A DNA stretch of 64,000 nt from a virus (lineage: Duplodnaviria; Caudoviricetes): the IMG/VR virus record IMGVR_UViG_3300009158_002556, positions 16,927 through 80,926 of that record; one strand, given 5' to 3'. The translations under genes and the position numbers were made by a program. The notes under the pieces are model-generated. The model ran no database searches and had not been told where the DNA came from. It was given only the letters and a program-made list of their open reading frames with translations. How positions within the stretch are numbered: position 1 is the stretch's first letter; each line of letters opens with the position of its first letter. Below, piece by piece: positions 4,885 to 46,918 of the stretch.

Positions 4885-6015
4885 ATGGAAGTTTTAAACA
4901 TCAAAGACGCACAGAGTTTTATTAACAATCGCAAAGTTGTATTTATTACCGGAGTAACAGGCCAAGATGGTAGTCACTTGGTTGATTATCTATTAGAAAC
5001 CACCGACTATTTCATAATTGGTGGGGCCAGAAGACTAAGTACAAAGAATCACGAAAACATCAGTCATATAAAAAATGACAGATTCAAACTAGTTAACTTT
5101 GATCTGAGTGATGTACATAGCATAAACAAAATTGTACAAGATCTTAAACCAGATTACTTTGTCAATTTGGCAGCACAAACCTTTGTTGGTTCATCATGGG
5201 ATTTTCCAGCACAAACATGGGAATGTAATACTACTGCTATTATTCATATTCTTGAAGCTATCAGACAACATAAACCAACTTGTAGATTTTATAACGCTGG
5301 CAGCAGTGAAGAATTTGGTGATGTTGAATATATTCCGCAAGATGAAAAACATCCATCTAAACCACGTAGTCCGTATGGTGCTAGTAAATCCGCCGCGAGA
5401 CAATTAGTTAAAGTATACAGAGAAAGTTATAATCTATATGCAATTCAAGGATTATTGTTCAATCATGAAGGCACTAGAAGAGGTGAAGAGTTTGTTACAC
5501 GTAAAATTACAAAGGGAGTAGCTAGAATCAAAAAAGCTATAGTTGAAGGTAAATCATTTGATTCAATCGAATTGGGTAATGTAAAAGCCAAAAGAGATTG
5601 GAGTGATGCGGAAGATTTTGTTAAAGGTATTTGGTTAATGTTAAATCAAGAAAAATGTAGAGTTGATATGGATAGTAATATGAAAATTGAAGAATATGTG
5701 TTATCTAGTAATGAAACACATACCATTGCAGAATTTGTATGGCATGCATTTAAAGCGGCTGATATTGAAGGTGCATGGCACGGACAAGCTGAATCCGCTG
5801 AATTTAGTATTAGTACAAAAGATGCAATCAAATATGAACCAGTGTCTTCTGTATTGGTTAAAATCAATCCTAAGTTTTATAGACCTGCTGAAGTGGACTT
5901 ATTACTGGGTGATAGCACCAAAGCCAGAAAAGAATTGGGATGGAAACCAGAAACTGACTTTGAAGGACTAATAAAAAAGATGGTTATTAACGATTTAAAA
6001 CAGGTCGGACTATAA
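4885..6015 (+). CDS. gmd: GDP-mannose 4,6-dehydratase
   Basis: ITGVTGQDGS, NLAAQTFV, SPYGASK, FNHEG, FVTRKIT and RDWSDAED motifs. Confidence 0.95.
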   Translation: MEVLNIKDAQSFINNRKVVFITGVTGQDGSHLVDYLLETTDYFIIGGARRLSTKNHENISHIKNDRFKLVNFDLSDVHSINKIVQDLKPDYFVNLAAQTFVGSSWDFPAQTWECNTTAIIHILEAIRQHKPTCRFYNAGSSEEFGDVEYIPQDEKHPSKPRSPYGASKSAARQLVKVYRESYNLYAIQGLLFNHEGTRRGEEFVTRKITKGVARIKKAIVEGKSFDSIELGNVKAKRDWSDAEDFVKGIWLMLNQEKCRVDMDSNMKIEEYVLSSNETHTIAEFVWHAFKAADIEGAWHGQAESAEFSISTKDAIKYEPVSSVLVKINPKFYRPAEVDLLLGDSTKARKELGWKPETDFEGLIKKMVINDLKQVGL

Positions 6016-11405: not shown

Positions 11406-12674
11406 TTATTTCTTCTTTAATTTCTTAAGAGTCATTGCTAATCTTGCACGTTGACCAACCTTACCACCCTTCTTTGCGGCAGCTGCTAATTTACCCATAG
11501 GAATCTTTTGACTCTGTGGTACTGATAATTGCTTGTGAAGTGCGCCTTTTTTAGCTGGTTTAATCGCATTTTGAATCCACTTCTTCTTGGTTTCATCGAT
11601 TTCTTTTGATTGTTCGAAAGAAATTTCACCAATATCACCTTGAACTGATGGACCTTCAACACCAGGTGGCAATTGATCGTCATCCATATCTTGAGCAACT
11701 GGTTGTTCATCACCACCCTCAGTGTCGTTTGATGTGGCCAATTGAGCCATCAATAAATCATGAAGTTTTTGTGCGGTTTCACGATCCAAAGTCAACTTGA
11801 TATCTTGAGTCTTTGTTTCTCCACCATCAGTTGAATCACCTGGAACTTCGGTTTCCATATCGGTCATATCATTTTCTTGTTCAATTTCGTGAATTGATTC
11901 CTTGATTAAATTTTTGATAATGTTTCTTAATTGTTCTTTTTTCATAGGTTTTTTACTTTCTGCATATCCGACAAAATCATATCCACTACCATATGTGCCG
12001 GATCCTATCATCGTTCCGTCTACTGGTAATGGACTTTCCGTAACTTGATCTGTATAAGCTTCACTCATTCGCCATCCGCCGCCTTTACTTTTGTACCATT
12101 TAGCAGCCCAACCATTAGCATAAGCGCTGGGATAAATATCAAATTTAGATCTGGCTGCGGATTTGGCTCTAGCCCATAAAGCAGGATTTGTTGGTTTTGG
12201 TTTTCTTTTACCTTTACCAGATTTTCTTCTTTTCTTTTCGTCTAACATAGCTTCCTCTAAGCTATTAAAAGTTTGGCCTTCTAATTCGATGTCAATTGTT
12301 TTGTTTAAAACCGGTTCACTTCGTCTACCATCAACTTGACCATCAGAAGTTCCGTCCATCGATCCGTACATATTTCCTTTTTTTAATCCACCCATACCAA
12401 TTCTAGCAGGATCATTTAAACTAGTAGTTGGATCGCCAACACCAGAACCAGTACCTGCTTGAAATTCCTTAGCCAATCCTGCATTAACTAATTTTGTATA
12501 ATACACAGGATCTTTGGTTAAATGATCCATAGAAATTTCTTTAGCAATTTCTGGATCATTGGTGTGTTCCATTTCCACTTGTACACCAATACTAAGTTGT
12601 GTTGGATCCACTTTATAGGTTGGTGTGTTATCACCAACACCACCTGGAATCTTTTTAATTAAATTGTCAATCAT
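11406..12674 (-). CDS. mosaic protein with DUF5661-like and basic motif modules
   Basis: GVQVEMEHT...MDHLTKDPVYYTKL, PTNPALWARAK...PSAYANGW and KKWIQNAIK...RARLAMTLKK modules separated by acidic or Gly-rich linkers. Confidence 0.65.
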   Translation of the reverse strand: MIDNLIKKIPGGVGDNTPTYKVDPTQLSIGVQVEMEHTNDPEIAKEISMDHLTKDPVYYTKLVNAGLAKEFQAGTGSGVGDPTTSLNDPARIGMGGLKKGNMYGSMDGTSDGQVDGRRSEPVLNKTIDIELEGQTFNSLEEAMLDEKKRRKSGKGKRKPKPTNPALWARAKSAARSKFDIYPSAYANGWAAKWYKSKGGGWRMSEAYTDQVTESPLPVDGTMIGSGTYGSGYDFVGYAESKKPMKKEQLRNIIKNLIKESIHEIEQENDMTDMETEVPGDSTDGGETKTQDIKLTLDRETAQKLHDLLMAQLATSNDTEGGDEQPVAQDMDDDQLPPGVEGPSVQGDIGEISFEQSKEIDETKKKWIQNAIKPAKKGALHKQLSVPQSQKIPMGKLAAAAKKGGKVGQRARLAMTLKKLKKK

Positions 12675-12870
12675 TTTTCTTTAATCCTTGTTGAAATTTT
12701 TCAAATCCTTTACCACCACCATATCCATAATCAATTATCCATCTGCGACCTCTCATAGATGGACTACCAACACTTGGATCGTGGAGCTTACCATCACCTA
12801 TATAATTCCAACCACCTTTTAATGGTTCTGGTTTACGATATGTTGGTTTATCATTAGCAAAGTTACCCAT
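12667..12870 (-). CDS. hypothetical protein
   Basis: 67-aa Gly/Trp-rich ORF overlapping the next gene. Confidence 0.6.
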   Translation of the reverse strand: MGNFANDKPTYRKPEPLKGGWNYIGDGKLHDPSVGSPSMRGRRWIIDYGYGGGKGFEKFQQGLKKND

Positions 12871-12871
12871 A

Positions 12872-13378
12872 TTAATACTCTCTTCTTCGTTGTGCGTATT
12901 TTCTAGCCTTCAAAATGGTCATAATCTCCATCAATGATTCATCTTTGTCATCGGGGTATACACCCATCATATGGAGCTTACTATAGTATTTAGCATCTTT
13001 CTTTAGATTGGTAACAACCTTTTGTTTGGCAACTTGTTTATCTTTTAGTACAAGCTTCTTCATTTCGTAATCAATACCCATGATAATTTCGTCTGGGGTA
13101 ACCTTATACTTGATTTGTTCTACGTCTTTTACGTAATCCCATGGATCTTTACCACCATATGGAGCAAATGGAGAAATATTTGCTTGTGTTTGTTTGGCTG
13201 TAAGGTTAGATTTATCAACCATAGTACCAAATTTATTTGGATCTTGAGCTACATCCGGACTACTGAATGTATCCAAAACGCCTGGTTCTACAGCGCCGGC
13301 AATGGCACCACCTTGACCATAAGGTAAACCTTGCATCATTCTGTCGCCTAGATCTCCTAATTCTCGTAGTTTAGACAT
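12872..13378 (-). CDS. hypothetical protein with diverged DUF5661-like segment
   Basis: IIMGIDYEM...NLKKDAKYYSKL resembles the motif in 11406..12674. Confidence 0.55.
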   Translation of the reverse strand: MSKLRELGDLGDRMMQGLPYGQGGAIAGAVEPGVLDTFSSPDVAQDPNKFGTMVDKSNLTAKQTQANISPFAPYGGKDPWDYVKDVEQIKYKVTPDEIIMGIDYEMKKLVLKDKQVAKQKVVTNLKKDAKYYSKLHMMGVYPDDKDESLMEIMTILKARKYAQRRREY

Positions 13379-16423: not shown

Positions 16424-17434
16424 CTACATATTTAATTTATTTTTAATAAAAGTAGAAGATATATTTTTGGTTCTTTCTATTAAATGTAATTTATCGATGT
16501 GTACTTGATAATACTTGTTAATATAATCTTCATTTTCTCTACCCGCCACAACATAATCCGCACTAATCTTATTAAGAAGATTGTCTGTCACAACTAAGTC
16601 GGCATTTTCATATACATCATCTACGTATTTACACGATTTTACTATTTCAAGTCGATCTTTATATGGTATAGTAGGTTTATTTTTATAAGTCATTACATCT
16701 TCATCATTATGAATGCCAACTATTAACTTACCAAAATTATCTTTGATTCGTTTGAACAAATTTAAATGTCCTATATGAAACATATCAAATACTCCATACG
16801 TATATGCGGTGTATTCGTCTTTTGGTACAACAACATTTTTATCAGGACTATAATTCGGTTTTTCTTCCATAAAATCTACACCATATCTAAATTGCAGATA
16901 TTGATCTAAATGTCTAGGGCATTTAAAATCTAACGTATTAAGTTCAACTGATTCTAATTCATCATAAAAGTGTTTTGGAGTATAAATGTTTGACCATGTA
17001 ATACTCTTTACAAATTTAGAATCGATATACCAAAAGTATATATCCACATGTGTCATTGTAAATTGAGGGTTGTTTTTTGGATATATACAAATATATTCGT
17101 TAGTCGAATGATGTATAATATAATAGTCTTGTGATAATCGTTCACATAACATCTCACTATTAAATTTTTCTTTTTCAAATAATATACTTATATCTAAATC
17201 ACAATCATGATTTATTATTTTTTTATTACGATATGCACCTAATAAAGTACCATAATCTAACCAATATTTTATGTTTAATTCTTGAAGAATATTTGTTACA
17301 CTTTTGAGTTCAATTACATCATATTTTCTATCACAATTGGATGAGATCATATTTTTCTCTTTAATTGTAGTTGCTAAACAAAAATCAGAATCAATTATAT
17401 TAGATTGTTCTTGATGTGATTTAAATTTACTCAT
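16424..17434 (-). CDS. licD: LicD phosphotransferase fused to TagD-like cytidylyltransferase
   Basis: N-half YWLDYGTLLGAYR...HDCDLDI (LicD); C-half GVFDMFHIGHLNL (HxGH) and RTKNISST. Confidence 0.88.
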   Translation of the reverse strand: MSKFKSHQEQSNIIDSDFCLATTIKEKNMISSNCDRKYDVIELKSVTNILQELNIKYWLDYGTLLGAYRNKKIINHDCDLDISILFEKEKFNSEMLCERLSQDYYIIHHSTNEYICIYPKNNPQFTMTHVDIYFWYIDSKFVKSITWSNIYTPKHFYDELESVELNTLDFKCPRHLDQYLQFRYGVDFMEEKPNYSPDKNVVVPKDEYTAYTYGVFDMFHIGHLNLFKRIKDNFGKLIVGIHNDEDVMTYKNKPTIPYKDRLEIVKSCKYVDDVYENADLVVTDNLLNKISADYVVAGRENEDYINKYYQVHIDKLHLIERTKNISSTFIKNKLNM

Positions 17435-32127: not shown

Positions 32128-33099
32128 ATGCCAGTTAACGGAAAACATCTATTACATTTAGTACCTCATGGTATCAATAGTGACGAATTCAAACCACTTG
32201 ATAACAAGCATAAATCTATTGTTAATTTGAAGAAAGAATATTTCAAAGATAAGGACTATAGTTTCGTAATCGGTTTCAATAGCAGAAATGCTCATCGTAA
32301 ACATCCTGCGAATTTAATCCTAGCATTTAAATCGTTTTGTTCTACATTGACCAAAGAAGAAGCTGATAAATGTGCATTGTTACTTCACACAGATGAAGTT
32401 TGTGAAGCTGGTACTGATCTACCAACCACAACAAAAGCTATTGCTCCAGAATGCAATGTTATTTTTGATGATAGTCGAAAGACTCCCGAAGAAATGGTTG
32501 CTTTCTATAACATATGTGATGTTGTAGCAAATGTAAGTTCCAATGAAGGATTTGGTCTTAGTATCGCAGAATCATTGATGTGTGAAACTCCAGTTATTGC
32601 TGCCGTCACTGGCGGTCTACAAGATCAATTGGGTATTACAGATGATAATGGTAATCCAGTTGAATTCACACGTGACTTTGGTACAAATTGTACAGGAAGA
32701 TATAAGAACCATGGCAAGTGGGCTAAGCCAGTATGGACCAAGGTACACAATATGCAAGGCAGTCCTCCTACACCATATATTTTGGATGACATGACCAATT
32801 ATAGTGATATTGCAGATGCGATCATGTATTGGTACTTGGTTGGTCCAGAAAAGCGTGAAGAATGTGGTAAAGAAGGTCGTCGTTGGGCAATGAATGAAGG
32901 TGGTATTAATTCAAAGAATATGTGCGACCAATTTATCAAAGCAATGGACTTCACATTAAATAACTTTAAGCCTGTTAATAAGTTTGACTTGTTTACATTC
33001 GATGGATATAATACCAAATCATTACCAGATAATGCTTTGGGATTTGATTTACACAAAATTGATATCGACGAAATTAAAAAGGAAATAGCTACTCTATGA
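32128..33099 (+). CDS. GT4-like glycosyltransferase, C-terminal half
   Basis: VPHGINSDEFKP, SRNAHRK, NEGFGLSIAESL and TGGLQDQ. Confidence 0.85.
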   Translation: MPVNGKHLLHLVPHGINSDEFKPLDNKHKSIVNLKKEYFKDKDYSFVIGFNSRNAHRKHPANLILAFKSFCSTLTKEEADKCALLLHTDEVCEAGTDLPTTTKAIAPECNVIFDDSRKTPEEMVAFYNICDVVANVSSNEGFGLSIAESLMCETPVIAAVTGGLQDQLGITDDNGNPVEFTRDFGTNCTGRYKNHGKWAKPVWTKVHNMQGSPPTPYILDDMTNYSDIADAIMYWYLVGPEKREECGKEGRRWAMNEGGINSKNMCDQFIKAMDFTLNNFKPVNKFDLFTFDGYNTKSLPDNALGFDLHKIDIDEIKKEIATL

Positions 33100-33776
33100 A
33101 AATTCAAGTATTAAAAAACGAAGACTATCAAGGTGTAGATAATCTACCCAAAAAAGGTACAGATAGAGCTACGGGTTATGATGTAGTTGCTACAAGTGAA
33201 CCAGAAATTGTTGGTGAAACAAAAGATAATATCACATATACCAGAGTAGATTATATTCAATATAAGACTAACCTTAAACTATCTGTACAAAAAGATCGTC
33301 AATTCAGTAACTTTGGTTATACAGATATTGATCATGATGTATTAGCATTTCCACGTAGTAGTGTTAGCAAGTACAATTTAGTACTGGCTAATTGTATTGG
33401 ATTAATTGACGCAGATTATCGTGGGGAAGTATTACTTCGTTTCAAATATATCTGGCAACCAGAAGATTATAAAATTACAAAGGATAATCTTTTGGAAGGT
33501 ATCGTCAATATCAACAAAATCTACAAAAAAGGTGATAAAGTTTGTCAACTCAAAGCAACTAAAGTAGAAAATGTAGAATTTGTTTTAGTGAACGAGTTGG
33601 ATTCTACCAAGAGAGGTGATGGTGGTTTTGGAAGCACAGATACAAAGAAAGCTCCAACTGCCGAAGATGCTAGTAAACATATGAATACAATGGAAGCAAT
33701 TTATACAAAATTAGGCGGTACTAACTATGTACCAAAAAAGTATGTGGAAATAATGAAAGAAAGGAACTTACAATAA
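33096..33776 (+). CDS. dut: trimeric dUTPase
   Basis: ATGYD, PRSS, GLIDADYRGE and RGDGGFGST motifs. Confidence 0.93.
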   Translation: MKIQVLKNEDYQGVDNLPKKGTDRATGYDVVATSEPEIVGETKDNITYTRVDYIQYKTNLKLSVQKDRQFSNFGYTDIDHDVLAFPRSSVSKYNLVLANCIGLIDADYRGEVLLRFKYIWQPEDYKITKDNLLEGIVNINKIYKKGDKVCQLKATKVENVEFVLVNELDSTKRGDGGFGSTDTKKAPTAEDASKHMNTMEAIYTKLGGTNYVPKKYVEIMKERNLQ

Positions 33777-35122: not shown

Positions 35123-35770
35123 ATGTTTTTGTCATATCTAGTTACTTGTCATAACGAAACCTCTAGCTTAGATAAACTACTATCCAAGTTAGTACAAAAT
35201 AAAAAAGATAACCATGAAATTGTTCTTCTTGATGATTATTCGGATAATCCAGAGTCTTTGGAGATTATACAAAAATATAAAGAAAAAACGTCGTTCCATC
35301 AACACAAACTAGATCGTAACTATGGCGCACACAAAAACTATGGTATTGAACAATGCAAAGGTACTTGGATATTTCAGCTTGATGGAGATGAATATCCAAC
35401 AGATCTTCTTTTGGAAAATATAGATGTGGTGTTGGAATCTAATGTTGATAACGAAGTACTTTGGTTGCCAAGACTCAATTACTTTACAGGTGTTACTGAG
35501 TTAGATGTAAAGACTTGGGGTTGGAATTATCAAGATGGTATGATAAACTATCCAGATTACCAATCCCGTATCTATAGAAATCTTTCACATATTCGATATC
35601 AACGTAGACTACATGAAAAGGTTGAGGGATTTAAATCGTATACATTTGTTCCTCCACAAAAGGATTATGCAATCGTACATGAGAAAACTATTGAAAAGCA
35701 ACGTCAAACCAACTTAAACTATAACAAACTCTTCAGTGAGGACGAAAATAAAGGATATAACGTAAGATGA
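35123..35770 (+). CDS. GT2 glycosyltransferase
   Basis: TCHNE, LDDYS, WIFQLDGDE, PDYQ and LHE. Confidence 0.85.
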   Translation: MFLSYLVTCHNETSSLDKLLSKLVQNKKDNHEIVLLDDYSDNPESLEIIQKYKEKTSFHQHKLDRNYGAHKNYGIEQCKGTWIFQLDGDEYPTDLLLENIDVVLESNVDNEVLWLPRLNYFTGVTELDVKTWGWNYQDGMINYPDYQSRIYRNLSHIRYQRRLHEKVEGFKSYTFVPPQKDYAIVHEKTIEKQRQTNLNYNKLFSEDENKGYNVR

Positions 35771-36402
35771 AACACATAAACTATTTTGATTTGGGACTTT
35801 GGAAAAGAGCAGATGAATTACATTATATGGTAGATGTTATATTACCACAATTTAAAAATATTACATATACAGCATATGGAATTGAAGCGCATCCAGAGTA
35901 TGCGAATGACATAAAAAACAAGTATCGTAATAATCCTAATGTAAAAATATTTAATAAAGCAATTTCAAATAATGTTTCTAAATCTAAATTATTTATATCC
36001 GATATCAATAATGGTTTGGGAAATTCAATATTTAAAACAAAAAATAATGTTAATATAAACTCTTATGTTGAAGTAGAAACTACACCTTTTTCTGATTGGT
36101 TAAAAGAAAATGAAATAGATTTATCTAATAGTATTAATATACTAAAAGTTAATATAGAAGGCGCGGAATTATTTCTGTGGGAAGATTTTAAAAAAAATAA
36201 TTTAAGAGATAGTTTTCATATATTGTGCGGTCATCCTTCTCATGACATACATAAAGTTTCCGAATTATGTAATCGAATAGATTATTATAACTCACTTTTA
36301 GTAGAATTAAATATAAATTTAATGTACTTCTGTCATACGAATAGTCGAGTATCCACAGACAATATGACCACATCTATAACAAATTTTTTAAAAAATGAAT
36401 AA
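35767..36402 (+). CDS. FkbM-like methyltransferase
   Basis: FDLG, GIEAHP and LKVNIEGAE. Confidence 0.75.
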   Translation: MKHINYFDLGLWKRADELHYMVDVILPQFKNITYTAYGIEAHPEYANDIKNKYRNNPNVKIFNKAISNNVSKSKLFISDINNGLGNSIFKTKNNVNINSYVEVETTPFSDWLKENEIDLSNSINILKVNIEGAELFLWEDFKKNNLRDSFHILCGHPSHDIHKVSELCNRIDYYNSLLVELNINLMYFCHTNSRVSTDNMTTSITNFLKNE

Positions 36403-37177
36403 TATCATGTCGAATAAAAAAATAGCATACTGCATGGTAGGTTGCATAGGTGGTTTACAAGGTAAAAATCATCAAAAACTATCAGGATCTGAACTCGTTT
36501 TAGAAAACGTATCCAAAAGTTTTTTTAACAACGTCTATAAGGACAATATAGACGTTTTCATCCATTCTTGGGATACACACTTACACGAATCGTATTGTAA
36601 GATATATAATCCTAAAAAAATAAAGATAGAAGAACAGATAGTTTTTAATATACCAAAACACATTGATAATACTCCTCGTGCGCAGGCACATTTTAGTAGA
36701 TGGTATAGTACAAATGAAGTATATAAACTTACAGACGAATATGAAAAAGAAAACAATATAAAATACGATCTTATAGTTCTAACCAGATTAGATTTGTATT
36801 GGTTGCAAAAAGTAAATCTTTCTGAATTGAATTCGAATCTAATTAATTTAGATCAAGTCATTATGCCATATGGAATATATGGAAGTAAAGATTCAATTGA
36901 ATTAGCGGATAGATTTATCGCTTCCAATAAGAAAAATATAGAATTAGTTTCGACTTTATACAACAATATATCTGATTATATGTTACCAAATAGATGTGGT
37001 AACTGGAATGGAATTTCTAGTCATTTCTTGTTACCATATCATTTGAAAGAATTAGGATTAAGAAATAAAGTAGAGTTTCCTTATTTTTATCACGATAAAG
37101 CGGCATTAAAACCTTTGAATGAAAGTCATTTAACAATTGCGAGAGATATTTACGAAAAAACACATTTTAAAAAATAA
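36395..37177 (+). CDS. hypothetical protein, possible GT-A fold
   Basis: KIAYCMVG, DVFIHSW, YDLIVLTRLD and DRF motifs; glycan context. Confidence 0.45.
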   Translation: MNNIMSNKKIAYCMVGCIGGLQGKNHQKLSGSELVLENVSKSFFNNVYKDNIDVFIHSWDTHLHESYCKIYNPKKIKIEEQIVFNIPKHIDNTPRAQAHFSRWYSTNEVYKLTDEYEKENNIKYDLIVLTRLDLYWLQKVNLSELNSNLINLDQVIMPYGIYGSKDSIELADRFIASNKKNIELVSTLYNNISDYMLPNRCGNWNGISSHFLLPYHLKELGLRNKVEFPYFYHDKAALKPLNESHLTIARDIYEKTHFKK

Positions 37178-37180
37178 TCT

Positions 37181-39097
37181 ATGAAAACAATTTATAAACC
37201 TTGGGGAAGAGAAGAATGGTTGGAATTAAATGAAAAATATTGTTATAAACGTATTTACATTAACGCTGGATACAAGACGAGTTATCAATACCACAATTTT
37301 AAACGTGAAACCAATTATATTATTTCTGGCCAGGCAGAAATTTGGTTGGAAAATAATAACGGCGTAGTTGAAAAAACAATAATGAGCGCCGGTGAGTATT
37401 TTAACGTAACACCACCTAAAAAGCATAGAGTAATAGCTTTAACTGATATTATTCTGCAAGAAGTATCTACACCCGAAGTAGACGATGTAATTCGATTAGA
37501 AGATGATACCAATAGAAAAGATGGTAAGATTGAATCGGAACATCAAACTCCTTCTGTATTGATCCTTGCTGCTGGATTAGGTAGTCGATTGAAACATCAC
37601 ACCGAATCTAAAAATAAAGCATTGTTGCCTATTAATAACAAAGCTATCATTTCATATATAATCGACAAATTTCCTAAGAACTACGAGTTGGTAGTTGCCG
37701 TGGGTTATAAGAAGGATTCATTGATTGAATATTGTACAGTAGCACATCCCGATAGAAAGTTTACGTTTGTTCATGTAGATAAATGGGAAAATCCCAATGT
37801 AGGACCTGGTTATTCAACTTTAAAGTGTAAACAACATTTACAAAAGCCATTCTATATAATTACAGCCGATTGTTTAATCGATTCAGAACTTCCTTCTATT
37901 GACGGAAATTGGTTGGGTGTATATCCTACTAGTTATCCAGAAAAATATTCAACGATTAACGTAGATCCAAACGGAAACGTATTAGACTTTAAAAATAAAT
38001 GTAAAAATGGTTATGACCAAGCATTTATAGGATTAGCCAGTGTTTTCGATTACGAAATTTTCTGGAAAGAATTGGAAACAAATACCACTGACTATGAACT
38101 AGTATCAGCTTGGTTTAATTCTAAAAAATATTCTACACTAAAATCGAAAGAACTAAAATGGTTTGATACTGGCAATTTGGATGATATTCAAAATACAAAA
38201 TCGCATTTTAAAGACGTTCCATTGTCATTACATAAAAATATAGACGAAATTACGTATAAAATTAACAATAAATTCTTGAAGTTTAATGCAGATGTTCAGA
38301 TTACCAATAACAGATGTAATAGAGGACTAAAATTAAGATCATTGGTACCAAATAACTTAAGATCAAATAACAACTTTCTTTCATATGATTGGACAGATGG
38401 CATTACATTATATGAATACAATTCTTATAATATCTACTCTAAGTTTCTGCCATTTTTTAAGAACACAATTGATAATTCAAAAACGTGGTTAGATTCAAAT
38501 CTCATTAGTAAATTTTACGTAGATAAAACAAACGTAAGAAAAAAAATGTTTTTAAATTTGTACGGCGATGACTTTCTAAATAAAAGGTTTAATATCAACG
38601 ACGTTGAATATCCATCAATGTCTGAGTTACTAGATAAAGTAGATTTTCCATCGTTGTCCTCTAATTTACTATATTCTAATTTTCACGGAGACCTACAATT
38701 CGATAATATCATTTATAATACAAAAGATGATAAATTCACATATATTGATTGGAGAGAATCTTTTGCGGGAGATACTAATGGTGGTGATTTATATTATGAT
38801 TTAGGAAAACTGTATGGCGGATGTTTGTTACCATACAATTTGTTGAAAAATGCACACTATGTTAATTTCACAGCCGGTCATTCTTATATCAAATATGACT
38901 ATCAAATTAACGATTCTTTAAAGGAATTTACAAGTACATACGAAAATTGGTTGACTAGTAATGGCTATAATTTAAACAAGGTCAAATTGATTACAGGTTT
39001 AATCTATCTAAACATGTCTCCGCTACATGATTCAAAGTTTAATAAACTTTTATGGTTTAAATCAATTGAACTATTAAATGAATGTGTCAATAAATAA
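37181..39097 (+). CDS. cupin + nucleotidyltransferase + APH/choline-kinase-like triple fusion
   Basis: KPWGRE...SYQYH..KRET...HR (type II PMI-like cupin); ILAAGLGSR...KAL (NTP transferase); FHGDLQFDNI...IDWR...YDLGKL (kinase). Confidence 0.85.
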   Translation: MKTIYKPWGREEWLELNEKYCYKRIYINAGYKTSYQYHNFKRETNYIISGQAEIWLENNNGVVEKTIMSAGEYFNVTPPKKHRVIALTDIILQEVSTPEVDDVIRLEDDTNRKDGKIESEHQTPSVLILAAGLGSRLKHHTESKNKALLPINNKAIISYIIDKFPKNYELVVAVGYKKDSLIEYCTVAHPDRKFTFVHVDKWENPNVGPGYSTLKCKQHLQKPFYIITADCLIDSELPSIDGNWLGVYPTSYPEKYSTINVDPNGNVLDFKNKCKNGYDQAFIGLASVFDYEIFWKELETNTTDYELVSAWFNSKKYSTLKSKELKWFDTGNLDDIQNTKSHFKDVPLSLHKNIDEITYKINNKFLKFNADVQITNNRCNRGLKLRSLVPNNLRSNNNFLSYDWTDGITLYEYNSYNIYSKFLPFFKNTIDNSKTWLDSNLISKFYVDKTNVRKKMFLNLYGDDFLNKRFNINDVEYPSMSELLDKVDFPSLSSNLLYSNFHGDLQFDNIIYNTKDDKFTYIDWRESFAGDTNGGDLYYDLGKLYGGCLLPYNLLKNAHYVNFTAGHSYIKYDYQINDSLKEFTSTYENWLTSNGYNLNKVKLITGLIYLNMSPLHDSKFNKLLWFKSIELLNECVNK

Positions 39098-39731
39098 GGA
39101 TACAAAAATATATTGTAGTTTTAGCAAAACAGCCGGTAATAAAGGATGTGAATTCTTTAACAAATCATTTGCAAAATATAATATAGATGCCTTATACAAA
39201 TCGTTTTCTATTAATAATATAAACGATGCTTATAAAGCGGCACTTTGTCTTAAATTTTCAGGTTGTGCAATTGCTATGCCTTTTAAAAAACAAGCATACG
39301 AACTTGTAACATATAAAGATGAAAGTGCCGAATTAAGCAAATCTGTAAATACTATTATATTCGATCATAATACAGATACATCTATAGGGTATAATACAGA
39401 TTATTATGCTACAGACATCATTCTTAAACCTTATATAAAAACCTATAAAATTATTAACATACTAGGCAACGGCGGATTATCTACCGCCGTTCAAGCTAAA
39501 TGTCGTGATTTAGGATTTGAAGTAAATCTAATAACAAGAGAAAACTGGAATACAATTAAAGATTTAAAAGATTCGTTAATATTTAATTGTACGTCTGTTA
39601 ATAATATAGAGGTAAAACCAAACAACGTTTTTATAGATTGTATAATAGGAACCAGCACAGGCGACGAGTTTCATAAGTATCAATCACATAAACAATTTAC
39701 GTTATATACAAATCTAATATATGAAGTATAG
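39078..39731 (+). CDS. shikimate dehydrogenase (AroE)-like oxidoreductase
   Basis: MPFKK (catalytic Lys), SVNT, GYNTD (catalytic Asp) and ILGNGG. Confidence 0.78.
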   Translation: MNVSINKDTKIYCSFSKTAGNKGCEFFNKSFAKYNIDALYKSFSINNINDAYKAALCLKFSGCAIAMPFKKQAYELVTYKDESAELSKSVNTIIFDHNTDTSIGYNTDYYATDIILKPYIKTYKIINILGNGGLSTAVQAKCRDLGFEVNLITRENWNTIKDLKDSLIFNCTSVNNIEVKPNNVFIDCIIGTSTGDEFHKYQSHKQFTLYTNLIYEV

Positions 39732-40716
39732 GTATGGAATAGGAGTGATGTCCAAAAATATTGTAGACGAGTGTATAAATTATGCTAATAATTTTAATGT
39801 AAACATTGCTTTCATACCATCACGTAGACAAGTAGACAACGATGGTGGTTATGTAAACAACTGGACAACCGAAACATTTTCTTATTATGTTAAATCAAAA
39901 ACGAGTAATATAATACTTAAAAGAGATCACGGCGGTCCACATCAAGGAAAGTACGTAGATGATGGTACCATTTCATTATATAATGATTGTATATACTTTG
40001 ATTCTATACACATAGATCCTTGGAAAATTGCAAATAACTTTTATGAAGGGTGTGTATTAACCAAAGATCTTATTAAATTTTGTCACAACAAAAACAAAAA
40101 TATTTGGTTTGAAATAGGCACAGAACAATCAATATTTCACTATGAATCAGATCAACTACACGATCTTATCAGTTATTTAAAAAACAATTTGTCAAGTGGT
40201 GAGTATGAACAAATCAAGTATGGTGTAATACAGAGTGGTACGTCTTTAAAAGAAAATAAAAACACGGGGTCGTATAATAATCAAAGATTGGTTGATATGG
40301 TCTCTATATGTAAGAAGTTTGGTTTGTTGTCTAAAGAACACAACGGAGATTATCTACCGTTACAATTAATCGAAGAAAAGTTTTACTATGGATTAGATGC
40401 TATTAATATAGCACCGGAGTTTGGTCAGATAGAAACAAAAACATATCTTGATGAAGTAAGATATAGTTCGTTGTTTGAAACTTTTTTTGATATCTGTTAT
40501 TCTTCAAAGAAATGGGAAAAATGGGTTGACAAATCTTTTAATCCATTTATAAATAAAGAACGATTAATCAATATATGTGGACACTATGTGTTATCTACAG
40601 ATAGATTCGTTAACGAAATTAAAAATAAAGTGAGATACGATATAGATAATCTCATACGAGAAAACATCAGAAATAAACTAAATGAATTATACAAAACCAA
40701 AAACGATATTTTGTGA
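39721..40716 (+). CDS. GatZ/KbaZ-like TIM-barrel sugar-phosphate epimerase/aldolase-like protein
   Basis: RDHGGP, IHID, EIGTE, KEHNGDY and NIAPEFG parallel the GatZ motifs DHLGP, IHLD, VIGTE, EAHSTDY and KVGPALT. Confidence 0.65.
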   Translation: MKYRYGIGVMSKNIVDECINYANNFNVNIAFIPSRRQVDNDGGYVNNWTTETFSYYVKSKTSNIILKRDHGGPHQGKYVDDGTISLYNDCIYFDSIHIDPWKIANNFYEGCVLTKDLIKFCHNKNKNIWFEIGTEQSIFHYESDQLHDLISYLKNNLSSGEYEQIKYGVIQSGTSLKENKNTGSYNNQRLVDMVSICKKFGLLSKEHNGDYLPLQLIEEKFYYGLDAINIAPEFGQIETKTYLDEVRYSSLFETFFDICYSSKKWEKWVDKSFNPFINKERLINICGHYVLSTDRFVNEIKNKVRYDIDNLIRENIRNKLNELYKTKNDIL

Positions 40717-41047
40717 TATAGATGGTACATTAGTTAAACACTATCCTCCTGATATAAATTCCGTGCCTGACTTTGAGTTAACTTTGTTGTCTGGTACATT
40801 GGAAACGCTCAGAGAATGGGATCGTAAAGGATATAATATAATACTTGTTACAGGTAGAAGAGAGAGTATGAGACAATCAACAGAAAAACAATTAAAAAAA
40901 ATAGGTATATTTTACGACCAACTAATTATGGGTATAGGCGGCGGACAACGTGTTATAATAAATGATTTTAAACCGAACAGTGACGAACCTACGGCAGCAC
41001 ACTTTTGTTTAAAAAGAAACGATGGTATATCAAGTTTAAATTTATAA
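40682..41047 (+). CDS. small HAD-family phosphatase
   Basis: FCDIDGT, VTGR and IINDFKP. Confidence 0.85.
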   Translation: MNYTKPKTIFCDIDGTLVKHYPPDINSVPDFELTLLSGTLETLREWDRKGYNIILVTGRRESMRQSTEKQLKKIGIFYDQLIMGIGGGQRVIINDFKPNSDEPTAAHFCLKRNDGISSLNL

Positions 41048-41111
41048 AACGACATGTATATACAATTAAAAAAATCTCAGCAACCGATATAACAGTGATT
41101 TTATAAATAAT

Positions 41112-41783
41112 ATGACAAATAAAGAATTAAGAGCCAAATACGGAGACTTTACAAAACACAATTACTACACTTACCCAGATCATTTCTTTAGCCCAAAGGA
41201 TGATTTTACCCTAAACATTCCTGTTTGGAGTAGTTACTTCACCAGATTTCTTGATCAAGAGAATCTACTTTTCCTAGAAATTGGTACTGGTCATGGTAGA
41301 TCTTCAGTGTGGATGTTGGAAAATGTTTTAACTCAACCAAACTCAAGAATCATTACTGTTGATATAGAAGATGTACGTAAGTACAAAAAAGGAGACTTAT
41401 CATTTGACTTTGGCGATTCTTTATCGTTAACATTAACTCAGAATCTTCAACCTTATATTGATAAAAATAAGTGTGAGTTTTATGTCACTGACTCCAAAGA
41501 GTTTTTACGTAAATTGTATGGTGGCACCTTGGGATCTAAGTTTCTTGGTAGCGATCCTAAGAACGTATTTGACTTCATCTACCTTGATGGATGTCACGAA
41601 CCAGATTATGTTATGCATGAAGCCGCAATTAGTTTTGAATTGTTAAAGAAAGGCGGATTTATTCTATTCGATGATTATGGTTGGGGTAAATGCAGATATG
41701 GTATCGAAGCATTCTTGGAATGTTATAAGGGTAAGTACAATTTATTAATCAAGGAATGGCAAGTATTGATTGAAAAAATATGA
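41112..41783 (+). CDS. SAM methyltransferase (Methyltransf_24-like)
   Basis: FLEIGTGHGRS, DFIYLDGCH and LFDDY. Confidence 0.88.
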   Translation: MTNKELRAKYGDFTKHNYYTYPDHFFSPKDDFTLNIPVWSSYFTRFLDQENLLFLEIGTGHGRSSVWMLENVLTQPNSRIITVDIEDVRKYKKGDLSFDFGDSLSLTLTQNLQPYIDKNKCEFYVTDSKEFLRKLYGGTLGSKFLGSDPKNVFDFIYLDGCHEPDYVMHEAAISFELLKKGGFILFDDYGWGKCRYGIEAFLECYKGKYNLLIKEWQVLIEKI

Positions 41784-42610
41784 TAAATATTAATAGTTTT
41801 GACGAGTTTAAAACTCTGATGAATAATCATAAAAGTTTTACTGTAAGAAGAGGTCGTGACGGATTTGGATCCCAAATGTATGCAACTATTATAGGTTTTT
41901 GTATATCAAAACAAATTAATAAACCATATTACTATTCAAGTTTATCGCCGATATCATTGATGAATGTGTCATTGTGGGGAAACTCTACAGAGAAAGCAAA
42001 TAATGTATTAAGTAAAATAATGAAAAATCTCAACATCGATCACGTTGAGAATAATTCGGGTGGATGTTTAAGTATACAACTTCCATATGGTTGTACAAAC
42101 GAACAAACATTCTCAGATAAAACTTTATCAGATTTACATAATAGCTGGCCATTACCAAAACCATCCTATTTTGAAAGTGATCATGTTATAAGCATTCATA
42201 TTCGTAGAGGATTAGATATCATTAAAAAAGATAAACATCGATTTTCAAGATGGGTTGAAGACCCAAACTTTTATAAAGATATGGTTTATAAATTATCAAC
42301 AAAATATCCAAAATCTAAAATCCATATTTTCTGTTGGGGAGAATGTGGTTTAGAGGATATAAAAAATGATAATTTAACAATTCATAATTCGGGTGGAAAT
42401 AACTTCATAGAAGACTTTAATGCATTTGTACACTCGGATATGTTAATTGTAGCCGGAAGCACATTTAGTGTAAGTGCCGCGTTCTTTAATAAAAACACAA
42501 TATTGTGTTCCAGTAAAATTTTGAAATTTAGTTCTCTCGTAGAAGAGAAATGTTATTCATCACCATTTCCAGAAATTTGGGAACAAAATTATAATTCAAC
42601 GCTTACGTAA
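41780..42610 (+). CDS. fucosyltransferase-like (GT11/GT23) glycosyltransferase
   Basis: DGFGSQ, SIHIRRG and SDMLIVAGSTFS. Confidence 0.68.
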   Translation: MININSFDEFKTLMNNHKSFTVRRGRDGFGSQMYATIIGFCISKQINKPYYYSSLSPISLMNVSLWGNSTEKANNVLSKIMKNLNIDHVENNSGGCLSIQLPYGCTNEQTFSDKTLSDLHNSWPLPKPSYFESDHVISIHIRRGLDIIKKDKHRFSRWVEDPNFYKDMVYKLSTKYPKSKIHIFCWGECGLEDIKNDNLTIHNSGGNNFIEDFNAFVHSDMLIVAGSTFSVSAAFFNKNTILCSSKILKFSSLVEEKCYSSPFPEIWEQNYNSTLT

Positions 42611-43608
42611 TGAAAATCCAAATATTAGAACTAGAAAAACATCGTAACGAAACAACATTTAGACCTTATCTAAGTGCAATACAAACGTTTAATGAGTATG
42701 GTATTGAATTCGTAAATGAAAACCCAGACATGTATTGGGTTGGTCAAGCATCTGTTGTAAATAAAAAAGTATCTCTTCAAGAATCAATTGATAACGGATG
42801 TAAGTTTTTAGAAAATTTGGATGCTCCTTATGTGTTATTTGATGGTCAAGATTCATCATCGTTGATGGGTGTGTGGGACGTATTTAGTAAAATACCAGGC
42901 TTTAAATTAGCAAAGAATGTTGTACTAAAAAATTATTCATCTTATACCAAAAAATTTCCAAATGGCAGATGGTTTTGGGGTGAGAGTGAAACTGGATATA
43001 GTGTATCATCGGCTGACCTAGAATTATTAAATAAACGATTGGTACATAGTGGCACAAATTGGTTAAATACATTTGGTAACAAGATGGAGTTTGCCAAGAT
43101 CAATAAAAACAAAAAACATGACGTTGCGGTACTTATTGGTCTATGTCCCGAGAACTATGAATATGGTAATCGGGTGGATGAATATTACAATGGTCCTCGT
43201 AGAAAACTATTTGAAGAAGTCAAGAAACTTGATTGTAATGTAATAACCACTGAAGCTACTGGCAAATTAGATAAACAAAAATACATGCAAACTCTATATG
43301 ATAGCAAACTTTGTATATCACCATTTGGTTATGGAGAAGTAAATATCAGAGAAGTTGAATGTATTGTCGCTGGTACTCCTACTATCAAACCCAACATTGA
43401 ATGTGTAAAAAGCACTCCATTTATTTATGGTAATGGATTTACATTGGATTGTAAGTCTGATTTCTCCGATTTAAAAGATGTTGTTGAATTTGCATTGTCA
43501 AACTACGATGATAGTATCAATTTATTAAATCAGCAACGTGAAGTGTTTTATCATAAATCAACCGATAACTACATCGTTAAACATGTAATCAAAAATATAT
43601 TGTCATAA
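42610..43608 (+). CDS. GT-B glycosyltransferase-like protein
   Basis: YMQTLYDSKLCISPFGYGE..IREVE...GTPTIKP. Confidence 0.65.
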   Translation: MKIQILELEKHRNETTFRPYLSAIQTFNEYGIEFVNENPDMYWVGQASVVNKKVSLQESIDNGCKFLENLDAPYVLFDGQDSSSLMGVWDVFSKIPGFKLAKNVVLKNYSSYTKKFPNGRWFWGESETGYSVSSADLELLNKRLVHSGTNWLNTFGNKMEFAKINKNKKHDVAVLIGLCPENYEYGNRVDEYYNGPRRKLFEEVKKLDCNVITTEATGKLDKQKYMQTLYDSKLCISPFGYGEVNIREVECIVAGTPTIKPNIECVKSTPFIYGNGFTLDCKSDFSDLKDVVEFALSNYDDSINLLNQQREVFYHKSTDNYIVKHVIKNILS

Positions 43609-45184: not shown

Positions 45185-46131
45185 ACATTTGTTTTATCAG
45201 TCAAAATGGTCATAGTGGTAAGTTACCAAGAAACTTTGTAAACTGTCGTACAGAGTTTGCGTGGCAAATTGCTTTGAATGCCGATCACTATAACTTTCAA
45301 GAATGGTTTTTATCTAACAAAAATAAAAGTTATGATTTAATTATAGTTTTGTTACCCAAGAAACTTGAAATTGTTGACACAAATATGTTATTAGAAAGTG
45401 TCAAATCTTCTGGTAAGAAGGTAACTGTTATGCAAGAAGGACCAGCTTGGTACTATCAAGATTATAATTATGTCAACCAAGTTAATTATATTAACTTTGT
45501 GAGTGAGATGGATTTTCTACTAACTCACAATACTAGTGATATTTCATACTTCAAAGGTGTATTTAATAAACCTTCATTCAATCTACAATCTCTTATGATT
45601 GAAGATACTATCAAAGATGTACCCCGTGAAAACAACAAGATACCTATTATTGGTGGTAACTTTTGTAGTTGGTATGGTGGTATAGATAGTTACTTTGTAG
45701 CGCAAGTATTCAACAAACCCATCTTTATACCAAGTATGGGTCGTAAAATAGAAAACGAAGATCAATTTCCTAGTTTACATCATTTACCATACATGATGTG
45801 GAATGAATGGATTAAAGCACTCGCTAATTTTAATGTGGGTATACATTTGATGCGTACTCACGCAGCTGGTACTTTTGCTCTCAATTGTGCATATCTAGGT
45901 ATACCATGTATCGGATATAAAGGATTAGATACACAACAAATATTACACCCAGAGTTATCTGTGGATATTGGTGACATTGAACAATCAAAAAAGCTAGCAA
46001 ATAAACTTAAAAACGACATTTCTTTTTATAATTCGTGTTCACAACAATCTAGAGAATTATATCAAATATATTATACAGAACAAAAATGGTTAGATAATTG
46101 GAAAACAATATATGAGCAAATCAAAAACTAA
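45154..46131 (+). CDS. GT-B-like glycosyltransferase
   Basis: GTFALNCAYLGIPCIG; likely start ATG 45181 (ATGA overlap). Confidence 0.55.
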   Translation: MGRSNLHRSMNICFISQNGHSGKLPRNFVNCRTEFAWQIALNADHYNFQEWFLSNKNKSYDLIIVLLPKKLEIVDTNMLLESVKSSGKKVTVMQEGPAWYYQDYNYVNQVNYINFVSEMDFLLTHNTSDISYFKGVFNKPSFNLQSLMIEDTIKDVPRENNKIPIIGGNFCSWYGGIDSYFVAQVFNKPIFIPSMGRKIENEDQFPSLHHLPYMMWNEWIKALANFNVGIHLMRTHAAGTFALNCAYLGIPCIGYKGLDTQQILHPELSVDIGDIEQSKKLANKLKNDISFYNSCSQQSRELYQIYYTEQKWLDNWKTIYEQIKN

Positions 46132-46918
46132 AATTGGTATCGTTGGTTATGGATATGTAGGAAAAGCATTTCATACATTTTTCAAAGATCATTATGAGGT
46201 TGTAATTCGTGATCCACTTTATCCAAACTCTGTATCCAAGGAAGAAATTAATCAATGTGAATTGGGTGTGGTTTGTGTACCAACCCCATCAAATACTGAT
46301 GGTAGTTGTGATACGAGTATTGTTGAAGAATCTGTATCATGGATGACCAATCCTATCATTCTCATCAAGTCAACTATTGAAATTGGTACAACTCGTAGGT
46401 TGATTGAAAAGTATAATAAGAAGATTGTATTTAGTCCAGAGTTTGCTGGTGAGTCCAAATACTGGACTCCACAGGGTTTTACAACTGATGTTAAACAAAC
46501 CCCATTCTTTATTTTTGGTTCAGATGATAAATCAGTTGGACATAGATTGGTTGACATTTATATGCCAATCACTGGACCAAGCAAAACATATCGTGTCACA
46601 GATAGTATTAGTGCAGAAATCACCAAGTATGTAGAAAACACTTACTTCGCAATGAAGGTTGCGTTTGTAAATGAACTATATGATTTGTGTGAGAAGAGTG
46701 GTACTCATTGGAGTGAAGTACGTGATCTATGGTTGTTAGATCCAAGAACCAACAAGTCTCACACAGCTGTATTTGCTAATGAACGTGGTTTTGGTGGCAA
46801 GTGTTTACCAAAAGATACAAAGGCTATGGTTGGATATGGTGACAAACTTGGTGTGGATCTATCAATCTTGAAGACCGTATTAAAGAGTAACGAACAAATG
46901 GTAAAACAAAATGGCTAA
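46112..46918 (+). CDS. short UDP-glucose/GDP-mannose dehydrogenase family protein
   Basis: GIVGYGYVG, VCVPTP, KSTI, SPEF, KYVEN and GFGGKCLPKD; no C-terminal UDP-binding domain. Confidence 0.88.
   Translation: MSKSKTKIGIVGYGYVGKAFHTFFKDHYEVVIRDPLYPNSVSKEEINQCELGVVCVPTPSNTDGSCDTSIVEESVSWMTNPIILIKSTIEIGTTRRLIEKYNKKIVFSPEFAGESKYWTPQGFTTDVKQTPFFIFGSDDKSVGHRLVDIYMPITGPSKTYRVTDSISAEITKYVENTYFAMKVAFVNELYDLCEKSGTHWSEVRDLWLLDPRTNKSHTAVFANERGFGGKCLPKDTKAMVGYGDKLGVDLSILKTVLKSNEQMVKQNG

Follow-up and report, generated by a model that had tools for sequence, protein, structure and literature searches.

What would a T4-like phage do with four overlapping genes whose products look like enzymes that rebuild and activate a sugar? 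The genes lie in a 64,000-nucleotide stretch of viral DNA (IMG/VR record IMGVR_UViG_3300009158_002556), and this whole stretch is called the window here. A first-pass annotation had placed them at positions 37181-41047 and suggested that they might make a new nucleotide-sugar donor. The four ORFs are found exactly there, all on the plus strand and overlapping by 20, 11 and 35 bases (Table 1). The cassette is a real, conserved and uncharacterised variant of the isomerase-kinase-phosphatase-nucleotidyltransferase logic, and we think it fairly probable that it makes a nucleotide-activated rare sugar, from a common sugar phosphate, for the large glycosyltransferase island of the phage.

The cassette and its setting

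The source phage is T4-like; its own DNA was found in freshwater and lake runs, and its relatives are marine. Glycosyltransferase and methyltransferase genes surround the four genes in the window. Three lake metatranscriptome libraries contain short contigs that are 99-100% identical to the cassette genes; these contigs cover the genes partially and may represent carried-over DNA. One low-depth contig from an RNA library joins position 35728 to 41105, with only 31 letters on one side, and it is not relied on here.

Whether the DUF7796-like protein encoded ahead of the four genes belongs to the cassette is uncertain. Its match to PF25072 (25.9 bits) is slightly below the cut-off, a sequence search for solved relatives returned none that was useful, and its matches in an atlas look-up were all unnamed viral clusters. 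In 34 of 98 cassettes a homologue is encoded within 7 kb of the barrel gene, and a related strain keeps the four cassette genes without it. The protein is a candidate transferase for the cassette product.

Table 1. Positions in the window of the cassette genes, the domains of the triple fusion and the neighbouring gene
Feature	Position	Strand	Basis
DUF7796-like protein, candidate cassette neighbour	36395..37177	+	weak PF25072 match
Cupin + nucleotidyltransferase + APH-fold kinase triple fusion, 638 aa	37181..39097	+	Pfam, HMMs, model/Foldseek
PMI-type cupin domain, putative sugar-phosphate aldose-ketose isomerase	~37181-37519	+	PF01050, HMM limits
Nucleotidyltransferase domain	~37544-38215	+	PF00483, PF12804, HMM limits
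APH-fold sugar kinase domain (putative)	~38222-39091	+	HMM limits, model, Foldseek
SdhL-type (AroE-like) NAD(P)-dependent dehydrogenase, putative, short form, 217 aa	39078..39731	+	PF08501, HI0607 match
GatZ/KbaZ-like class II aldolase-fold TIM barrel, short form, 331 aa	39721..40716	+	AlphaFold/Foldseek
Small capless HAD phosphatase (predicted), DxDGT motif, 121 aa	40682..41047	+	Pfam HAD families

The enzymes

The fusion of cupin, nucleotidyltransferase and kinase in the first gene, as annotated earlier, is borne out by Pfam, the kinase model and Foldseek. Pfam places a PF01050 cupin at aa 2-108 and an NTP_transferase at 126-340; the domain limits in Table 1 were set by HMMs built for this analysis. 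A sequence search for solved relatives of the cupin gave no informative one. Among solved structures, LicC (1jyk, E 3.5e-6) is the closest to the nucleotidyltransferase; sugar-1-P transferases match equally weakly, and the match to HddC is also weak. The kinase-domain profile gave only weak, catalytic-loop matches to solved structures and, therefore, the fold was predicted. The model of the C-terminal 290 aa (pLDDT 92; Foldseek E 8e-6) has a fold of the APH / 5-methylthioribose-kinase / choline-kinase type, with matches to APH(2''), MtnK and choline/ethanolamine kinases. H155-G156-D157..N162 and D176 (the HGD..N and D-W-R motifs) are invariant in the alignment, and bacterial homologues of the kinase exceed the Pfam APH cut-off.

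The second gene had been annotated as an AroE-like dehydrogenase with its catalytic Lys and Asp intact, which agrees with the alignment: K70 and D108 are invariant, as are S14, N91, GxG and Q202/Q206. Its best solved relative is the SdhL protein HI0607 of H. influenzae (1npy, E 6e-21), with which it shares the INKDT N-terminus, the catalytic Lys/Asp and the glycine-rich loop; however, HI0607 has 271 aa and another gene context. We know of no physiological substrate of SdhL. The protein matches PF08501 (46.6 bits), but it scores far under every shikimate-dehydrogenase equivalog cut-off (111.3 bits against 306 for PRK12550, the best NCBIfam model, and 62.5 against 200.2 for TIGR00507). It keeps the catalytic dyad and substrate-domain motifs of AroE, but lacks a complete Rossmann domain and a shikimate gene context. 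No further shikimate-pathway gene occurs among the roughly 60 ORFs scanned, of 80 in the window with at least 100 aa. These scores and this context agree with the earlier suggestion that AroE is probably repurposed. The short length does not come from a C-terminal truncation: alignment with full-length cassette homologues places two internal deletions of ~20 and ~26 residues in the Rossmann (nucleotide-binding) domain.

The barrel encoded by the third gene has no Pfam match even at E 1, including PF08013, and a sequence search of solved structures returned nothing useful. The top Foldseek matches of its AlphaFold model (pLDDT 93.9) are the GatZ-family structures 3txv and 2fiq (E 2e-16 to 3e-14; TM 0.69-0.80 normalised to the query), followed by class II FBP/TBP aldolases, and so, the earlier description as GatZ-like holds. 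It is ~30% identical to PF08013-positive proteins, and a Listeria homologue at 29% matches PF08013. D69, H70, E135 and H207 are invariant in the family and align with the catalytic D87 and the metal ligands H88, E171 and H257 of E. coli GatZ (19% identity). However, C20, E44 and K279 of GatZ are replaced by G8, I32 and N229 in the barrel and in all cassette homologues. According to PMC11907403, these three second-shell residues are a signature that distinguishes GatZ/KbaZ, reported as F6P/T6P C4 epimerases, from aldolases. The barrel is also ~90 residues shorter than GatZ/KbaZ and is tied to activation enzymes rather than to a PTS or a GatY aldolase. The protein is a putative metal-dependent retro-aldol enzyme that would act as an aldolase or epimerise a ketose phosphate at C4. 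The epimerase role that had been raised earlier is in keeping with the retained catalytic residues, but since the three signature positions differ, fructose-6-P/tagatose-6-P epimerisation would be only one possibility among others, and at 19% identity the barrel may act on something other than a hexulose 6-phosphate.

The fourth gene product matches several Pfam HAD families, as expected from its annotation as a HAD phosphatase. The best of its solved relatives is Pnkp1 (E 1e-7), among PNKP-type phosphatase domains; matches to GmhB structures are weak (E 0.11-0.13), and 1xpj matches at E 0.41. Its gene lies beside that of the barrel in most cassettes. Presumably this small HAD removes the non-anomeric phosphate.

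Two forms of a widespread cassette

A census through the barrel, made by an alignment-based scan, gathered 166 loci (a single-protein scan of viral contigs had found four). The barrel and the kinase occur together in 98 of them, nearly always accompanied by a nucleotidyltransferase, a cupin and a HAD; the HAD is present in 85 of the 98. These cassettes span uncultivated viruses and at least eight prokaryotic lineages, including Bdellovibrionota, Planctomycetota, Verrucomicrobiota, CPR bacteria and archaea. The four-gene set thus recurs across viruses and many phyla, and therefore, the objection that the genes do not co-occur elsewhere fails; their co-occurrence is far beyond chance, and this is not a chance neighbourhood. 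The barrel family alone yielded 4870 clusters of metagenome proteins, and the triple fusion yielded hundreds.

The redox step had been described as part of the module, and the dehydrogenase is indeed linked to it. However, it is an optional accessory and not part of the core: 33 of the 98 loci have the AroE-like gene, the viral ones always with the triple fusion, and 65 lack it and have a separate cupin. For example, loci L100 and L109 have nearly identical barrels, and only one of the two has the AroE-like gene. Other fusions also tie the steps together, namely HAD+cupin in L118, L145 and L149 and barrel+nucleotidyltransferase+kinase in L118.

Trees, made with FastTree only, display an interesting pattern. 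In the nucleotidyltransferase-kinase tree, a branch with 98% support has AroE-bearing loci in 27 of 28 rows on one side and none in the 59 rows on the other; the AroE label changes twice, compared to a mean of 23 after shuffling. The cupin tree is split in the same way. The barrel and HAD trees are not, and require 20-21 and 14 changes, respectively. This difference would imply that the dehydrogenase probably alters the sugar before it is activated. The co-variation could instead come from block recombination of adjacent genes rather than from function; the cupin, nucleotidyltransferase-kinase and AroE-like genes form the left half of the cassette and the barrel and HAD genes the right half.

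What the cassette may make

The first-pass annotation found no described pathway with this set of enzymes, and neither did we: a literature search on the combined enzyme set, DUF7796 and HY126 found no paper that describes the cassette, and the GatZ-like and SdhL-like steps are in no described pathway that we found. The annotation had compared the logic to NDP-heptose biosynthesis (GmhA, HddA or HldE, GmhB, HddC or HldC), with other folds. That comparison stands as far as it goes. The four-step logic, the HAD phosphatase and, in our proposal, the bisphosphate intermediate are common to both; the heptose isomerase is a SIS protein rather than a cupin, its kinase is GHMP or PfkB rather than APH, and the route has neither an aldolase-fold step nor a dehydrogenase step. 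A closer precedent, however, is a phage pathway. As summarised in PMC13326640 (He et al., Nat Chem Biol 2026), HY126/RB69-like phages use an isomerase, AfhE and AfhF to make UDP-arabinofuranose via a 1,5-bisphosphate, AfhE being a fusion of a nucleotidyltransferase and an APH-kinase and AfhF a small HAD. The genes reported for RB69 are gp55 (arabinose-5-P isomerase), gp53:52 (AfhE) and gp51 (AfhF). This pathway of T4-like phages and the cassette share a single protein in which a nucleotidyltransferase precedes an APH-fold kinase, a phosphatase of ~120-130 aa alongside, a ketose-phosphate isomerase, and the logic of isomerising, phosphorylating C1, stripping the other phosphate and activating. 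The likeness is one of architecture and not of sequence: BLASTP of the cassette proteins against those of RB69 gave nothing significant (gp53, E 0.72; gp52, E 0.014, in the catalytic loop only; gp51, no alignment). The arabinofuranose isomerase is a SIS domain and not a PF01050 PMI-type cupin, that pathway has neither a GatZ-like barrel nor an SdhL-like dehydrogenase, and the cassette, unlike it, is widespread in cellular genomes. The LicC/LicA CDP-choline module has the same domain order, a nucleotidyltransferase followed by a choline-kinase-fold kinase, and LicC and LicA are fused as LicCA in some bacteria. However, the constant partners here (the PMI-type cupin, the aldolase-fold barrel and the HAD) serve no choline activation.

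From the folds, catalytic residues, linkage, fusions and co-variation, we infer substrates, an order of steps, a nucleotide and a product. The GatZ-like barrel would reshape a common ketose phosphate by a metal-dependent retro-aldol/aldol reaction, for example by epimerising C4 of fructose-6-P to give a tagatose-series sugar. The SdhL-like dehydrogenase would then use NAD(P)(H) to alter a single hydroxyl or keto centre, and the PMI-type cupin would convert the ketose phosphate to an aldose phosphate. The APH-fold kinase would phosphorylate the anomeric position, the small HAD would take off the original phosphate and the nucleotidyltransferase would form the NDP-sugar. One point against this explanation is that a plain isomerase-kinase-phosphatase-transferase scheme offers no evident slot for a dehydrogenase.

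Another order of steps, which we consider rather unlikely, would have no bisphosphate: the barrel and the HAD would release a free rare sugar, the cupin would isomerise it, the kinase would act directly on its anomeric hydroxyl and the nucleotidyltransferase would activate it. The barrel and HAD genes are mostly adjacent and move freely between the two forms of the cassette, HAD+cupin fusions occur, and APH-fold sugar kinases such as 5-methylthioribose kinase (MtnK, among the best fold matches) take unphosphorylated sugars. In E. coli, GatZ/KbaZ with a phosphatase (HxpA with GatZ) yields free tagatose (PMC11907403). However, the closest family to the cupin is PF01050, with sugar phosphates as the substrates of its known members, the HAD is capless, a class that includes the bisphosphate phosphatase GmhB, and the sole demonstrated route with a nucleotidyltransferase-kinase and a HAD reportedly passes through a bisphosphate. 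It is more doubtful still that the SdhL-like enzyme makes an alditol phosphate and the LicC-like nucleotidyltransferase a CDP-alditol (compare CDP-ribitol and CDP-glucitol) for a phosphodiester-linked polyol decoration. LicC, the best solved relative, activates a phospho-alcohol, the AroE-linked nucleotidyltransferase-kinases form their own clade, and in E. coli ST648 sdhL is sorbose-induced and lies directly upstream of the L-sorbose operon, whose route is ketose-to-alditol-phosphate (PMC12817954). Yet a CDP-alditol route requires no kinase and no phosphatase, two thirds of the cassettes have no dehydrogenase and still keep the cupin, kinase, HAD and transferase, and, as indicated above, the nucleotidyltransferase matches sugar-1-P transferases equally weakly. 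The LicD-family transferase of the window (16424-17434), moreover, is fused to a cytidylyltransferase of its own.

The activated sugar might also be attached to a modified base in the phage's own DNA, the fate of arabinose in RB69-type phages. This is reportedly the only demonstrated use of a nucleotidyltransferase-kinase and HAD module in T4-like phages; the RB69 module adjoins the DNA polymerase gene; here the polymerase gene is ~8 kb upstream, and the glycosyltransferase run of the window contains a dUTPase-domain gene. We regard this as improbable, however. The cassette is also found in bacterial and archaeal glycan loci, one of them adjoining an acyltransferase, and many cellular copies are outside any phage context; the very large set of transferases and methyltransferases in the window fits a complex glycan, and no thymidylate-synthase-like base-modifying gene was seen among the scanned ORFs. 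Metagenome pipelines label these proteins shikimate dehydrogenase and fructose/tagatose bisphosphate aldolase, which would make them unrelated auxiliary metabolic genes, a true shikimate dehydrogenase and an enzyme of tagatose/galactitol catabolism. This is hardly credible given the equivalog scores, the deletions in the Rossmann domain and the lack of a second shikimate gene among the scanned ORFs noted above, a barrel without GatY-type partner or PTS context, and the tight overlapping linkage to activation enzymes that is kept across phyla.

If the cassette does supply a nucleotide-activated rare sugar, the product may possibly be a new nucleotide sugar, such as an NDP-hexose of the tagatose/talose series or a mutase-free hexofuranose, with the SdhL-like enzyme acting as a sugar-phosphate oxidoreductase and the phages coating their virions with it. 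In that case, the SdhL-like enzyme would derive a second rare donor from what the AroE-less cassette makes, and abundant freshwater and marine phages would use both donors for the virion coat. The two natural forms are a built-in experiment, and a comparison of the L100 and L109 products would isolate the dehydrogenase step.

The cassette is abundant, and its carriers range from ultra-small bacteria and archaea through predatory bacteria and planctomycetes to large aquatic phages. Knowing what it makes would enlarge the textbook set of nucleotide-sugar pathways, would assign a physiological role to a branch of the GatZ-like family and possibly to the SdhL class, and would show what the large glycan islands of phages place on the surface or the DNA.

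The cassette and its genomic setting

The overlapping genes that the first-pass annotation placed at 37181-41047 match four open reading frames on the plus strand, and successive frames overlap by 20, 11 and 35 bases. They are surrounded by a run of glycosyltransferase and methyltransferase genes. The window has a G+C content of about 30% and its genes include a family B DNA polymerase, a clamp-loader ATPase, a phage lysozyme and an intein-split NifU/IscU; therefore, it belongs to a large T4-like phage. Between 74 and 91% of its sampled words recur in runs of at least 15 freshwater studies dated 2017-2025, which marks the phage as a freshwater one even if many of its relatives are marine.

Genes of the window discussed in the text
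Feature	Position	Strand	Remarks
DegT/DnrJ-type aminotransferase-fold gene	3650-4783	-	head to head with GDP-mannose 4,6-dehydratase
GDP-mannose 4,6-dehydratase	4885-6015	+	head to head with DegT/DnrJ-type gene
LicD-family and cytidylyltransferase-like (PF01467) domains	16424-17434	-	one protein
Partial dUTPase domain	33096-33776	+	226 aa; within glycosyltransferase run
Cupin + nucleotidyltransferase + kinase fusion	37181-39097	+	ORF, 638 aa
SdhL-class (AroE-like) dehydrogenase	39078-39731	+	ORF, 217 aa
GatZ-like barrel	39721-40716	+	ORF, 331 aa
Capless HAD phosphatase	40682-41047	+	ORF, 121 aa
UDP-glucose/GDP-mannose dehydrogenase-like	46112-46918	+	268 aa; part of N-terminal and central domain, without C-terminal domain

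The DegT/DnrJ-type gene and the dehydratase form a second nucleotide-sugar pathway in this phage, and the LicD-family protein looks like an enzyme that activates and transfers a phospho-alcohol by itself, independently of the cassette. The dUTPase-domain gene is flanked by a GT4 gene and an unknown 447-aa gene. The UDP-glucose/GDP-mannose dehydrogenase-like gene, whose flanking frames have no family match, may be split or reduced.

The glycan island differs gene by gene among strains. In DNA of a different freshwater sample, for example, a contig runs straight from 35769 to 37158, which indicates a related strain without the FkbM methyltransferase and the DUF7796-like gene just upstream of the cassette; it also joins across 41776-42611, where a GT11-like gene is missing. 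That strain keeps the four cassette genes. Three lake metatranscriptome libraries from different studies contain short contigs of 99-100% identity that fall within the fusion, at the junction of AroE and barrel, and within the barrel; these are compatible with transcription and also with DNA carry-over.

Predicted activities of the four proteins

The fusion protein contains a PF01050 mannose-6-phosphate-isomerase-type cupin (residues 2-108) and a nucleotidyltransferase (126-340) whose closest solved relative is LicC (E 3.5e-6). Its C-terminal 290 residues reach an E value of only 0.038 against Pfam APH, and bacterial homologues exceed the APH cut-off. An HGD..N catalytic loop and a D-W-R metal motif are invariant in an alignment of 27 kinase domains, and the predicted structure of the domain (pLDDT 92) is nearest to aminoglycoside 2''-phosphotransferases, 5-methylthioribose kinase and choline/ethanolamine kinases. 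These results bear out the three-part composition proposed in the first-pass annotation. The phosphatase, a HAD protein as proposed there, is capless; its nearest relatives are PNKP-type phosphatase domains, and its similarity to GmhB and 1xpj is only weak.

The dehydrogenase is nearest to HI0607 of the SdhL class of shikimate-dehydrogenase homologues (E 6e-21). It scores well under all of the NCBIfam shikimate-dehydrogenase cut-offs; a genuine shikimate function is thus very unlikely, and the suggestion that an AroE-like enzyme was probably repurposed is supported. Alignment with full-length cassette homologues places two deletions inside the Rossmann domain, which rules out a C-terminal truncation, and indicates that S14, K70, N91, D108, the glycine loop and Q202/Q206 are kept, including the catalytic Lys and Asp reported earlier as intact. 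The short form is a coherent metagenome family with proteins of about 205-220 aa.

The barrel has no match in a Pfam search. Among solved structures, its model (pLDDT 93.9) is most similar to 3txv and 2fiq of the GatZ family and, after these, to class II aldolases. It is 19% identical to E. coli GatZ and retains the catalytic Asp-His, Glu and His (D87/H88/E171/H257) as D69/H70/E135/H207, in agreement with the GatZ-like label. The positions of C20, E44 and K279, said to mark GatZ/KbaZ (PMC11907403), are occupied by G, I and N. The phage barrel is also 50-55% identical to one at L012:8001-8978 and at about 18 other marine Flavobacteriaceae loci (L007-L022, L028, L029), where it stands alone on the chromosome next to succinate dehydrogenase genes and lacks a neighbouring kinase, transferase or cupin.

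Distribution and two forms of the cassette

With the barrel as bait, 166 loci were gathered from viral contigs, prokaryotic genomes and two phage records, and their components were scored with purpose-built HMMs. The barrel and kinase occur together in 98 loci, nearly always with the transferase, cupin and HAD, so the set recurs in viruses and in several prokaryotic lineages. The viral sources are uncultivated viruses, whose contigs reach 299 kb and which include one giant-virus bin; the cellular ones are Bdellovibrionota, Planctomycetota, Verrucomicrobiota, Myxococcota, Legionellales, candidate-phyla-radiation bacteria and archaea. In 63 further loci the barrel lacks the other cassette genes; some of these are from streamlined marine Flavobacteriaceae, and others, in catabolic settings, are GatZ-like genes of enteric bacteria or Firmicutes.

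The cassette is more than a neighbourhood. Cupin, transferase and kinase are fused in some loci, HAD and cupin or barrel, transferase and kinase in others; for example, viral locus L118 has an 874-aa barrel-nucleotidyltransferase-kinase protein, and HAD-cupin proteins of 237-260 aa occur in L118, L145 and L149. This variety among loci in what is fused is independent evidence of joint action by the enzymes. In L001 (Marine virus AG-345-E15, MH319741), a GHMP kinase lies downstream of the cassette together with another cupin and another nucleotidyltransferase (11756-13306), as if they were a second activation module.

Two forms exist. The AroE-less form (65 of the 98, including L001) has a separate cupin of 114-120 aa and a transferase-kinase of about 515 aa. 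The other 33 bear the AroE-like gene, and in complete viral examples, including the window's, the cupin is always joined to the transferase-kinase (about 638 aa). All trees were quick FastTree trees. A branch with 98% support in the transferase-kinase tree separates 27 AroE-linked rows and one other from 59 rows, none of them AroE-linked, and the AroE label changes twice compared with a shuffled mean of 23. The cupin tree has the same split. However, the label changes 14 times in the HAD tree and 20-21 times in the barrel tree, at least 12-13 of the latter forced by well-supported branches; L100 and L109, one of each form, have near-identical barrels. We read this as meaning that the barrel and HAD reactions are probably common to both forms, and that the dehydrogenase would alter a sugar that the isomerase, kinase and transferase must then accept. 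Block recombination alone could yield the same pattern, because the co-varying genes are also physically adjacent.

Proposed chemistry and alternatives

The nearest demonstrated chemistry is the phage UDP-D-arabinofuranose route. In the work of He et al. 2026, as related in PMC13326640, it starts with an arabinose-5-P isomerase; the APH-type kinase of AfhE, fused to a nucleotidyltransferase, forms a 1,5-bisphosphate, the small HAD AfhF takes off the 5-phosphate and the AfhE transferase domain then forms the UDP-sugar. The architecture is shared with the cassette, but direct comparison with the RB69 counterparts gave no significant sequence similarity. This analogy suggests an order in which the barrel would re-shape a ketose phosphate by a retro-aldol reaction, followed by the putative dehydrogenase, cupin isomerase, anomeric kinase, HAD phosphatase and transferase. 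If the barrel has the activity of GatZ, the product may reasonably be guessed to be a tagatose- or talose-series hexose; with its divergent second shell, the barrel could also act on pentulose or heptulose phosphates. The likeness to NDP-heptose pathways was correctly perceived: heptose and arabinofuranose activation share this general logic. What the cassette newly adds is a cupin isomerase, together with a GatZ-like step and, optionally, an SdhL-like one.

A salvage-type order with a free sugar intermediate is a less probable alternative, which agrees with the pairing of barrel and HAD. The LicC-like transferase hints at a CDP-alditol product, as does an sdhL gene adjoining the sorbose operon of E. 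coli ST648 (PMC12817954); however, such a product would not explain why AroE-less cassettes retain all of the other enzymes, and the window's LicD transferase carries its own fused cytidylyltransferase. Transfer of the sugar to DNA, as in RB69, is possible, but the occurrence of the cassette in cellular genomes and the very large number of transferases in the window speak against it.

The first-pass annotation could not match this enzyme set to a described pathway, and a literature search gave no paper on it. New here are the two-form structure of the cassette and its co-variation pattern, the residue-level GatZ comparison, the internal-deletion reading of the short dehydrogenase and the freshwater origin of the phage.
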